Source of the DNA: a virus
Taxonomy: Duplodnaviria; Heunggongvirae; Uroviricota; Caudoviricetes
Direction: 5' to 3' (one strand)
IMG/VR virus record: IMGVR_UViG_2917881069_000006
Length of the DNA stretch: 41,465 nucleotides
A program made the translations under genes and the position numbers. Below, piece by piece: positions 29,711 through 31,579 of the stretch; position 1 is the first letter of the stretch; each line of letters opens with the position of its first letter. Under the pieces are notes generated by a model. The model did no database searches. It saw nothing but the letters and a program-made list of their open reading frames with translations, and was not told where the DNA came from.

Positions 29711-29938
29711 TCTAAATCATATGTGCCGCCAACAAACAATATACAATTTACTCTAAATAGCTGTGGCAGCATTCTCTAACTTAATATTTATTCTGAAACA
29801 GAGTTAATTATTTAAAAATAAACTTCCCCATCAATCATATACCTGAGAGTACTTATCGCCTGTTGGGCAGATATTATTTTCATCAAAGGATAGTGTTTAA
29901 AAACAATACCATTCATAAAATAGATATCACATGTTTTG

Positions 29939-31339
29939 TTATCTGTGTTTATTATAATTTTTTCGAATGTTTTTATAAGCAAGTGTACGACATAATTCCC
30001 GCCCATTTTTACTGGTTAAATCAATGTCATGGAAATCACCAAGTGTACTTACACCTTTACTCTTCAAAGTTTTTAATGATATAGAAACCCTTCGCAATTC
30101 TTTATCTAATACTCTGATTTTTTCTGCTATAGCGGTAACTTCAGGTGCAACAGATAATGCAACAATTAAATTATTAATTTTCATCTGAAGTTCAATAACT
30201 TTCAACTCCAGAGTTTCATTAACATCTTTCTTATTTTCAACTGGTTGGATTTTACTACAATTAAAAAGCAATTCATTGACTATATTATAGTCAACCAAAT
30301 CTCTTCTTATTGATGGCCTGTTACATCGATGCAATCTTCTCATCGGGCAAACATAATAGCCGTGCAAGCTTCCTGATACTGCATTAACAATCATAGTATT
30401 ACCACAAGCGCCGCACTTCATAACTGTTCGCAGTAGATTTATCAACATAGGGTTCTTGCTACTATTGCTAATACCAAAAGGTGCTAGCCGAATTTCCTGC
30501 ACAGAGTAAAACAAATCATCTGATATCACTCTGGGATAATAGTCAGCGATTTCAATTATTCCCTTCCCTCTTGCACGATATGAAGGTACGCATATACCTA
30601 TCAGCGCTTTATTAGCTAATAATTTTTCAATTACAGAAGGCCCCCATGCACTTTCTTTTCCTGAGAAATTCTTTATAGCATGATCATTTAAATACTTAGC
30701 AATTGCATTCAAAGAGCGTCTTTCCATCCTTAGTTTAAAAATCAGCTCAATCGTTTTCACCCTGTCAGGGTCTAAGACAAACGACGTTCTTTTTTCATCT
30801 AATGAAAGCCATCTCGGGCAAGATGCCGTCATAATCGTACCTGACTCCATTGCATCTTGTCTTTTTTTCTTCCATGATAATTTAACTCGGCTTGACTTTA
30901 TCTCGCTTTCTTCATTGGCCCTTTGAGCTATAAGTATTGCTTTTATTAATGAATATGGTTCATTTAAAGAATCAATATTATAAGTTGTATTATCGCACAG
31001 AGTTATAACATCAATACCATGATTTAAAATCAGTTTCAGGCGTTCAATCGCCTCACCGACTTTTTCTCTTGAAAGTCTGTCCAGACTTTCAACTAGCAAT
31101 GTAGTTCCTGGCAATATACAGCCATGCTCTATGGCATCTAAAAATTCCGAAAAAGCTCCTGACTGTGCATGCTTTCCATTGAATGCGCTTAACCCCAAAT
31201 CTTCATACGTTACGGTATCAAGGTAATAATCACTATTTACCTTTAGCCATTCAGTAATAAGCCTTCTCTGGCGGTTTAATGAATCACCAGACATCTGGCT
31301 TGGTGATGAAAATCGCATATATGCTATGGCTTTTTTCAT
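29939..31339 (-). CDS. large serine recombinase (resolvase/invertase catalytic domain plus recombinase and zinc-ribbon domains)
   Basis: 466 aa; N-terminal AIAYMRFSSPSQ...LNRQ catalytic-Ser motif, central recombinase domain, Cys cluster CGACGNTM...YYVCPMRRLHRCNRP, C-terminal coiled coil; RBS AGGTG; AT-rich gene inside a lambdoid backbone. Confidence 0.85.
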   Translation of the reverse strand: MKKAIAYMRFSSPSQMSGDSLNRQRRLITEWLKVNSDYYLDTVTYEDLGLSAFNGKHAQSGAFSEFLDAIEHGCILPGTTLLVESLDRLSREKVGEAIERLKLILNHGIDVITLCDNTTYNIDSLNEPYSLIKAILIAQRANEESEIKSSRVKLSWKKKRQDAMESGTIMTASCPRWLSLDEKRTSFVLDPDRVKTIELIFKLRMERRSLNAIAKYLNDHAIKNFSGKESAWGPSVIEKLLANKALIGICVPSYRARGKGIIEIADYYPRVISDDLFYSVQEIRLAPFGISNSSKNPMLINLLRTVMKCGACGNTMIVNAVSGSLHGYYVCPMRRLHRCNRPSIRRDLVDYNIVNELLFNCSKIQPVENKKDVNETLELKVIELQMKINNLIVALSVAPEVTAIAEKIRVLDKELRRVSISLKTLKSKGVSTLGDFHDIDLTSKNGRELCRTLAYKNIRKNYNKHR

Positions 31340-31579
31340 GTTGACACCTGCTAACGCATACTTTTATAAACCTTAGCGGCGAGTTATAATTTTGTTTAAT
31401 TTTTATTTAAAAAGACAATCGAGATCACATTTTCTTAAATATACAACAAATACCGCATAGCAATTTGCTGCCACATAAATTCACAGACACAAAAGAATAT
31501 AGTGTATAAGCAGCCTAAAAACATTTATCAACAGTATAAAAAGAAGTTCGTTATCAGTGAATTGTTCTGTGATTGGGGA

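Follow-up and report, generated by a model that had tools for sequence, protein, structure and literature searches.

The large serine recombinase gene studied here lies inside a prophage that has a tyrosine integrase of its own, on a stretch of viral DNA (Caudoviricetes, 41,465 nucleotides, IMG/VR record IMGVR_UViG_2917881069_000006) that we refer to as the window. An earlier note, made from the letters alone, had proposed that two similar AT-rich segments beside the gene could be recombination sites. Our analysis makes it highly probable that the gene is a mosaic-module copy of the ybcK type known from the DLP12 prophage, frameshifted near its end, and that the apparent repeats arose by chance. 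The features on which this reading is built are collected in Table 1.

Table 1. Features of the ybcK locus and of the integration genes in the window.
Feature	Position	Strand	Remarks
Convergent lipoprotein gene	29321..29677	+	118 aa; phrog_7441, E 1.1e-67; hint of a lipoprotein signal; separate accessory gene
Terminator of the lipoprotein gene	29682-29705		terminator scan
Left end of ybcK homology	29794..29811		5-18 nt past the ancestral stop, by E. coli context; pairwise BLAST
Displaced C-terminal coding remainder of ybcK	29812..29969	-	ancestral stop codon at 29812-29814
Left "repeat", AAAATAGATATCACATGTTTT	29917..29937		codes for N-K-T-C-D-I-Y-F, conserved in full-length YbcK
ybcK-type large serine recombinase ORF	29939..31339	-	466 aa as now read; ORF list and translation
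T5 run, A5 as read on the coding strand, with +1 frameshift at codon 456	29970..29974		alignment with E. coli ybcK
ybcK 5' leader, moving with the gene	31340..31498	-	homologous to the E. coli ylcJ-ybcK interval
Right "repeat", ACAATCGAGATCACATTTTC	31415..31434		in the ybcK 5' leader
Decayed antirepressor (rha/ant), frameshifted, without its C-terminal part	31544..31899	-	upstream of ybcK
Excisionase	40621..41022	+	PHROG match
Tyrosine integrase	40878..41465	+	runs off the window; phrog_10426, E 3.8e-116

The domain content of the 466-aa product indicates a real large serine recombinase. Pfam searches returned Resolvase (PF00239, E 9.6e-19), Recombinase (PF07508, 6e-15) and Zn_ribbon_recom (PF13408, 1.6e-8), and the RFSSPSQ motif occupies residues 9-15, which bears out the earlier description of an enzyme with a catalytic motif and a zinc ribbon. 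Across 100 homologs, the catalytic residues D87, R88 and R91 are invariant, R9 and S11 are at least 90% conserved (invariant in a clade of 22 members), and the zinc cysteines Cys309, Cys312, Cys331 and Cys339 are invariant or nearly so. Sequence searches of the PDB, with YbcK alone or with a profile of the 22-member clade, gave no recombinase match, and the fold was therefore compared by structure prediction and Foldseek. The AlphaFold model of E. coli YbcK (pLDDT 85) contains two long helices, 368-395 and 402-430, forming a coiled coil embedded in the zinc ribbon, and its best full-length matches were serine integrase-DNA complexes: 9dxd (E 6e-19), Bxb1 (9iu2) and PhiC31 (9tep). Purifying selection is strong (dN/dS 0.06-0.07 overall), and the four zinc cysteines and every catalytic residue have been preserved, so that the serine-recombinase route is to be expected: an intact YbcK would recombine two short DNA sites through Ser11-linked double-strand breaks, subunit rotation and religation. 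No candidate target sites of this kind were seen in the flanks of the gene.

The recombinase is already known. Residues 1-455 of the window protein are colinear with the 508-aa YbcK of E. coli (P0001), with 94% amino-acid identity, and this high identity, the position between ren and ninB/ybcN and the shared leader together identify the gene as an ortholog of ybcK. The gene is annotated in the DLP12 prophage and in many lambda-like phages, and 1421 of the 5426 complete genomes of E. coli, K-12 included, have copies whose DNA is about 89-91% identical to that of the window. Our literature search found no functional study of YbcK and no report of recombination activity for any YbcK; overexpression of ybcK has been linked to a sabinene-tolerance phenotype (PMC7181518).

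The earlier note had described the gene as intact-looking, a description that fails at its 3' end. Compared with E. coli ybcK, the run at 29970-29974 holds one T too many, which shifts the frame at codon 456 and leaves the old C-terminus as a separate ORF (29812..30006); removal of one T from the run restores an ORF of 508 aa. This separate ORF matches positions 105-161 of phrog_2371, a profile of the YbcK C-terminus. The tail cut off by the frameshift, about 52 aa, is conserved in the 22 clade members, and the AlphaFold model gives it the order helix, three strands, helix, strand at pLDDT 87-95. The displaced tail has a dN/dS of 0.04-0.05. If the extra base is real, the change of frame would thus remove a subdomain beyond the coiled coil that is conserved and modelled with confidence, and the window copy is probably inactive. 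The complete C-terminal region after the coiled coil is absent from the window copy and present in E. coli and in two near-identical prophage contigs (L098 and L099), which are 98.4-98.5% identical to window positions 28500-33100 (L098 is shorter and ends at 32842). Both contigs carry T4 (A4 on the coding strand), and their gene is whole at 508 aa. The lesion is therefore private to the window sequence; it is either a very recent mutation or, equally, a homopolymer sequencing error. A look-up of the exact 466-aa product showed it to be encoded by no assembly on record.

The frameshift also bears on the proposed recombination sites. Both strings exist and both are in direct orientation. Their positions are those of Table 1 and not near 29883 and 31403, and neither lies 40-60 nt outside an end of the gene, as had been stated: the left one begins 2 nt beyond the present stop, within the ancestral ORF, and the right one lies 76-95 nt upstream of the ATG. 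The best ungapped match between the two segments is 14 of 17 positions, and 7.5% of 1000 dinucleotide-preserving shuffles of the 150-nt flanks matched as well or better (P = 0.075, about 0.08). With gaps the pair scores 11, and the best local score of shuffled sequences averaged 10-16 (500 shuffles for each of three flank pairs). The similarity is therefore not above chance, and the left segment codes for a conserved protein motif. The earlier note had also suggested aligning homologous loci to see whether the flanking similarity is conserved, and had named a lack of conservation among the refuting outcomes. It is not: a match of 14 of 17 is confined to the window allele and its two closest relatives, while 76 of 78 loci show 9-11 of 17. 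In a separate comparison, three E. coli and phage loci had 11 of 17. The left segment is nearly invariant among the 78 loci, and the right segment occurs as six sequence variants. The two segments are thus best taken as a chance resemblance present only in this allele, and not as recombination sites.

If the recombinase acted on two segments beside its own gene, it could excise the gene as a circle, or the locus could be an invertible cassette. The direct orientation of the two strings on either side of the present ORF would suit such a cassette, as would the fact that the ybcK block is a discrete mosaic unit of about 1.7 kb with fairly sharp edges. Apart from the chance-level similarity and the free variation of the right segment, the position of the left one within the full-length coding sequence speaks against it, as an excision at that point would run through the gene. 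An E. coli genome has a single copy of ybcK, or two at the most, unlike what is expected of a proliferating element. In addition, the attL and attR sites of known serine integrases have only the central dinucleotide in common and are not direct repeats of about 20 bp. A scan for repeats across 28500-33100 returned only short pairs of low identity, typical of AT-rich DNA, and the flanks of the gene contain no significant inverted repeats. As the homology block stops 5-18 nt beyond the ancestral stop, there is no space for a conserved site downstream. We saw no sign in favor of an excisable cassette or a phase switch, and such an arrangement is extremely improbable.

The limits of the block were drawn by comparison with E. 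coli. The module (window 29794-31498, about 1.7 kb) consists of the gene and a leader of 159 nt; the sampled E. coli matches all begin at window position 29794, 29801 or 29807, and homology ends on the right between 31466 and 31499. The prophage is lambdoid, and around the module lie P, ren, ninB, ybcO, rusA and Q, ybcK being placed between ren and ninB in a slot of variable content. Elsewhere this slot holds emrE-ybcK-ybcL-ybcM (PhiR34_1), emrE-ybcK-hydrolase (Perceval) or the defence gene PD-lambda-1 (PhiR26_1). The module is part of an AT-rich island (29200-31600) with a GC content of 0.30-0.40 against about 0.5 in the flanks, the lipoprotein gene filling the remainder. By its deviant composition, its position between conserved backbone genes and the variable content of its slot among phages, ybcK is a phage "moron".

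Upstream of the leader, window positions 31544-32142 are 93% identical to the N-terminal part of the PhiR26_1 Rha and its upstream DNA, and an ORF at 31660..31899 matches PHROG Ant families. The first 59 bp of this region (31544-31602) lie upstream of ybcK in the window and downstream of ybcK in E. coli loci. We considered this segment as a target site or target duplication and rejected it: it corresponds to the stretch shared by two independent breaks in a single antirepressor gene (positions 3160 and 3218 of locus L008), and by a rough estimate the chance that two breakpoints in a gene of about 600 bp lie no more than 59 bp apart is about 0.2.

That the recombinase shares its prophage with a tyrosine integrase is confirmed by the integrase and excisionase genes at 40621..41465. 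The integrase had been called truncated; its presence stands, and the truncation does not follow, as it is the edge of the window that cuts the ORF. The visible part is 99% identical to the matching part of a 387-aa integrase ORF that adjoins tRNA-Arg at a DLP12 locus. The same coexistence is found in the viable phage Perceval, which has Int, Xis and YbcK together, and in a Pantoea prophage (L012) with a tyrosine integrase and a YbcK homolog of 43% identity; a tyrosine integrase is thus present in all three phages or prophages with a visible integrase.

One could nevertheless suppose that an intact YbcK inserts all or part of the phage genome into a secondary site of the bacterium, the phage site lying elsewhere or diverging too fast for detection. 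The serine-integrase architecture and the catalytic residues are conserved under strong selection, and PHROGs groups YbcK with integrases (phrog_95). Some homologs are the terminal gene of a prophage beside host DNA (L004, L010 and L094, one prophage end being seen), a position that would suit a true integrase; the neighbor is the tmRNA gene in Atlantibacter and lepA in Erwinia, while L094 has host genes beside it. Of the distant loci, about half received no annotation from our BLAST gene-context panel. In the lambdoid phages, however, more than 9 kb separate ybcK from the end of the prophage, and it is the tyrosine integrase that is found at the attachment site. Close relatives, with about 60% identity to the window protein, occur both in the nin slot (L015) and at the tail-fibre end (L004), which fits a moving accessory gene better than a fixed integrase. 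Moreover, in four homolog loci (43-59% protein identity to the window protein) the 350 nt on either side of the gene yielded no conserved non-coding motif. Two weak downstream pairs in flanks of the distant homologs (z = 3.0 and 5.1) had differing partners and positions and were judged to be chance. We regard a second integration module as unlikely.

The accessory position suggests another role, in which YbcK would cut or rearrange the DNA of a competitor phage or of the host and be kept because it is useful to the phage or the lysogen. The gene and its homologs occupy two classic accessory slots, ren-ninB and the one after the tail-fibre genes, the former being the very slot that carries PD-lambda-1 in PhiR26_1, and the gene remains intact under strong selection even in DLP12, a defective prophage. 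Position by itself, however, is weak evidence. The recombinase and its neighbors matched no model of PADLOC-DB v2 at E <= 0.01, and a literature search found no paper tying YbcK to defence. Expression also argues against this role: typical defence genes are expressed in lysogens, whereas K-12 ybcK is silenced by Rho in normal growth. A function in phage competition or defence is quite improbable.

In K-12, a Rho/NusG-dependent terminator has been located in the untranslated region upstream of ybcK (PMC4150792), and by homology we infer the same function for the window leader. Pattern scans of the leader gave no convincing promoter on the gene strand. Because ybcK is co-oriented with the pR early operon and its K-12 homolog lies behind this terminator, the lysogen most likely keeps the gene silent, and antiterminated read-through would express it during lytic growth, a model that transfers K-12 data at about 89% DNA identity and adds the orientation of the gene.

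More generally, YbcK-type proteins might be a clade of their own among large serine recombinases, competent in catalysis but not serving as the integrase of their phage, with a target perhaps outside their own neighborhood. We put this forward tentatively, as a rather unlikely proposal. The proteins move between the nin region and the tail-fibre end, their dN/dS is about 0.06, a tyrosine integrase accompanies them in the three cases named above, and their expression is probably limited to lytic growth, through antiterminated read-through. A competing phage, a further prophage or the chromosome of the host could, for example, carry the target; the bearing of the window on this proposal is confined to the conservation of the gene. 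If true, a site outside the enzyme's own neighborhood would be a new use for large serine recombinases.

The locus itself, a copy of the known gene ybcK that is either damaged or mis-sequenced, with proposed sites that reflect chance, is of little import. The interest lies in the family: phages that already have a tyrosine integrase for their integration keep a full-length serine integrase intact under strong selection. Once found, the DNA targets of YbcK could provide either a new coliphage integrase for genome engineering or a non-integrase role for this class of enzyme.

Among known systems, the small invertases Pin, Gin, Cin and PinQ share with YbcK the serine-recombinase catalytic domain, seen as a weaker match to phrog_125 ("DNA invertase"), and residence in a prophage that integrates by other means. 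They are proteins of about 190 aa with a C-terminal helix-turn-helix and adjoin an invertible segment bounded by inverted repeats, whereas YbcK is of the large type and its flanking inverted repeats do not exceed chance. With the serine integrases PhiC31 and Bxb1 and the RDF-bound integrase (9dxd/9dxf) it shares the catalytic and recombinase domains, the zinc ribbon with embedded coiled coil, the conserved catalytic Ser, Arg and Asp and the full-length structural match to integrase-DNA complexes. It is only 14-19% identical to them, beyond the reach of PDB sequence searches, and in lambdoid phages it sits away from the prophage attachment site and leaves integration to the tyrosine integrase; neither att sites nor a directionality factor turned up for it. 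The closest counterpart is YbcK of DLP12 in E. coli K-12 (b0544), 94% identical in protein (residues 1-455) and about 89-91% identical in DNA. Compared with DLP12-type copies, the window gene is an allele of its own (in complete E. coli genomes its DNA identity never exceeds 95%), has a decayed antirepressor upstream where others have emrE, is followed by a lipoprotein gene in place of ybcL/ybcM or a hydrolase, and has lost its last 52 or so residues to its private +1 frameshift. It shares with the DLP12 gene the domain set, the slot between ren and ninB/ybcN, the early-right orientation, the 5' leader and the coexistence with a tyrosine integrase, and further copies of ybcK are carried by viable lambdoid phages, including Perceval, 4A7, Lambda_4C10, 1W, 3W, D2 and PhiR34_1.

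The window encodes a 466-aa ORF with all three Pfam domains of large serine recombinases (Resolvase, E 9.6e-19; Recombinase, 6e-15; Zn_ribbon_recom, 1.6e-8), confirming the recombinase with zinc ribbon proposed in the earlier note, and the RFSSPSQ motif named there occupies residues 9-15. GC content is 0.30-0.40 over ~29200-31600 versus ~0.5 in both flanks. Of 5426 complete E. coli genomes, 1421 (K-12 MG1655 among them) carry ybcK, the recombinase gene of the E. coli K-12 prophage DLP12, with about 89-91% identity to the DNA at 29794-31498. Amino-acid identity to E. coli YbcK (508 aa; cluster P0001, 6144 member sequences) is 94%. 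Intact 508-aa ybcK was also found in twelve E. coli lambdoid phage records (4A7 counted under two accessions), and the Perceval record already labels its gene “Large serine recombinase, DLP12 YbcK homolog.” The window gene is a ybcK ortholog with all serine-integrase features except the C-terminal end of this copy.

The gene had been described as intact-looking, but alignment with E. coli ybcK revealed that the T run at 29970-29974 is longer by one base; this shifts the frame at codon 456, adds ten unrelated residues before a stop, and removes the C-terminus. The former C-terminus persists out of frame as ORF 29812..30006, which matches the PHROG profile of the YbcK C-terminus over its final third; with one T deleted, the frame is open for the full 508 aa. 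Two IMG/VR prophage contigs, L098 and L099, share the gene order and 98.4-98.5% identity with window 28500-33100 (up to 32842 for L098, the shorter contig). As both carry four bases rather than five at this run and an intact 508-aa gene, the frameshift is private to the window sequence; the 466-aa product itself has no counterpart among recorded assemblies. Compared with three E. coli alleles, the displaced tail keeps a dN/dS of 0.04-0.05; the extra T is therefore either a very recent mutation or an error in sequencing the homopolymer.

Conservation of the last ~50 residues extends through 22 clade members, the most divergent at 43% identity, and a Cys, a Gly, a Pro and a Leu in this stretch are near-invariant. 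AlphaFold modelled E. coli YbcK with a mean pLDDT of 85; in the model, the C-terminal part comes directly after the coiled coil and forms a helix, three strands, a helix and a strand (pLDDT 87-95). Judged from this conservation and the predicted fold, the part lost from the window copy appears to matter. The best structural matches of the model were full-length serine integrase-DNA complexes (9dxd, E 6e-19; Bxb1, 9iu2; PhiC31, 9tep); PDB sequence searches found no recombinase. Homologs, 505-522 aa long, are spread over the Enterobacterales, among them Atlantibacter, Yersinia, Erwinia, Pantoea, Citrobacter, Ewingella and Kluyvera. In 100 sequences, D87, R88, R91 and four cysteines never vary, and R9 and S11, which are invariant in the 22-member clade, are conserved to at least 90%. 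The dN/dS of the window allele against E. coli alleles is 0.06-0.07, at dS 0.36-0.47. Damaged forms also exist in E. coli (clusters P0002, P0003, P0004, P0005 and P0045), among them a 478-aa form lacking 30 internal residues and several products of 256-325 aa, partial or fragmentary, with hundreds of member sequences; ybcK decay is thus not rare, even though the intact form is under strong selection.

Features of the window around ybcK and at the integrase end
Feature	Coordinates	Strand	Position
Dam-type adenine methyltransferase	39187-39744	+	early-left region
YdaT-toxin-domain gene	34750-35289	-	cII position
Replication protein P	33737-33036		first in gene direction
Ren	33045-32728		after P
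isrK and C4 antisense RNA genes (the two listed singly below)	32127-31946		after Ren
C4 target a1/b1 match	32090-32140	-	directly upstream of antirepressor gene
isrK match	32055-32127	-	directly upstream of antirepressor gene
C4 antisense RNA match	31946-32031	-	directly upstream of antirepressor gene
Decayed antirepressor gene	31899-31544	-	next upstream of ybcK leader and gene
ybcK (466-aa ORF)	29939..31339	-	
Lipoprotein gene with own terminator	29321-29705	+	after ybcK, convergent
NinB, YbcO, RusA, Q			beyond lipoprotein gene
Excisionase	40621..41022	+	window end
Tyrosine integrase	40878..41465	+	window end, continues past edge

The position of ybcK is the accessory slot between ren and ninB of lambdoid phages. 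This slot holds emrE-ylcJ-ybcK-ybcL-ybcM in PhiR34_1 and K-12, emrE-ybcK-hydrolase in Perceval, and PD-lambda-1 with Rha, without ybcK, in PhiR26_1. In the window, the place that ybcL/ybcM or the hydrolase take in other phages is filled by a lipoprotein gene (118 aa; phrog_7441, unknown function), which has a strong intrinsic terminator and belongs to the same AT-rich island as ybcK. In Rfam, C4 antisense RNA scored 67.5 bits against a gathering score of 45 and isrK 54.8 bits against 50, with a sub-threshold match to the C4 target a1/b1; together with the truncated antirepressor these look like a P1/P7-type C4-ant (immI-like) control module. The antirepressor (rha/ant) gene is broken beside ybcK in two different ways (compare E. 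coli L001 7608-7907 and PhiR26_1 L008 2908-3516): its N-terminal part lies upstream of ybcK in the window, and its C-terminal part downstream in E. coli ML35 and Perceval. The two breakpoints are 59 bp apart in the intact gene, a nearness that is probably coincidental (chance about 0.2 by rough estimate) and is the sole hint of a recombination-prone spot.

The earlier note had also proposed similar 21-bp direct sequences flanking the gene, near 29883 and 31403, as recombination sites. Two such strings do exist, at 29917-29937 and 31415-31434. The left one starts 2 nt past the present stop, inside the full-length coding sequence, where its coding strand encodes the conserved stretch N-K-T-C-D-I-Y-F; the right one lies in the leader, 76-95 nt upstream of the start codon. 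Their best ungapped match, 14/17, was reached in 7.5% of 1000 dinucleotide-preserving shuffles (150-nt flanks), and their gapped local score was 11, against best shuffle scores averaging 10-16 (three flank pairs). Among 78 related IMG/VR loci, 14/17 was found only in the two closest relatives and 9-11/17 in the other 76, the right segment occurring in six variants and the left, coding segment being almost invariant; three E. coli and phage loci gave 11/17. Such loss of the similarity in most related loci is among the observations that the note itself had named as refuting the sites. A repeat scan of 28500-33100 in both orientations revealed nothing else of note, and the flanks of distant homologs held no conserved non-coding motif. 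The edges of the ybcK block are fairly sharp, about 130-160 nt upstream of the start on the right and 5-18 nt past the ancestral stop on the left, in three different left-hand contexts, leaving no space for a conserved site on the downstream side. The flanking sites that the note proposed are not real, and a self-excising cassette is close to refuted.

The prophage's own tyrosine integrase is present as described, 99% identical to the matching part of an integrase ORF beside tRNA-Arg in a DLP12 locus; its supposed truncation is not demonstrated, since the ORF runs off the window. In this prophage, which has the integrase and an excisionase at its attachment-site end, ybcK is an accessory module. 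It is possible that YbcK serves as a second integration module, as the terminal position of some homologs would suggest. In Atlantibacter (L004, DHIB01000016.1, 10001-12432), the prophage ends with a 59%-identical homolog, 540 nt from the tmRNA gene 3' end, where ssrA-integrating elements normally have their integrase. Other homologs likewise lie last, past tail-fibre genes and adjoining host DNA: before lepA in Erwinia (L010), and after O-antigen modification and UmuC-like genes in a P22-like prophage (L094). Against this role, however, stand the gene's internal location in lambdoid phages and its mobility from slot to slot. The nin region is the second main context, as in a Pantoea dispersa prophage (L012), also with its own tyrosine integrase, and in Atlantibacter L015, between O/P and Q; both kinds of context are found among relatives with ~60% identity to the window protein (L004 versus L015). 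One homolog (L093) lies in a degraded phage island. The gene shares the orientation of the upstream phage genes in most of the contexts seen. In Citrobacter koseri (L095 8145-11530, CAYTAX010000009.1), a 51%-identical homolog is divergent from an adjoining 555-aa gene with a faint Shufflon_N (PilV-like) match, among TraD, MobA/MobL and pilin-like genes of a plasmid-like or conjugative region. Since known shufflons use a tyrosine recombinase, a serine recombinase there would be unusual.

By analogy with its family, intact YbcK would cleave two short sites through Ser11, its subunits would rotate and the DNA would be religated. Gene orientation and K-12 work suggest that ybcK would be silent in the lysogen and read through in lytic growth; the K-12 leader contains a Rho/NusG-dependent terminator (PMC4150792). 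The only reported phenotype, better sabinene tolerance upon overexpression (PMC7181518), does not account for a recombinase. A role in competition or defence is suggested only by location, and neither PADLOC, which gave no match, nor the literature searched lent it support. To the genuine question of what YbcK-type recombinases do, the window locus adds nothing special. Both the gene and its arrangement are known; the frameshift is private to this sequence, and the similarity of the flanking strings arose by chance in AT-rich DNA.
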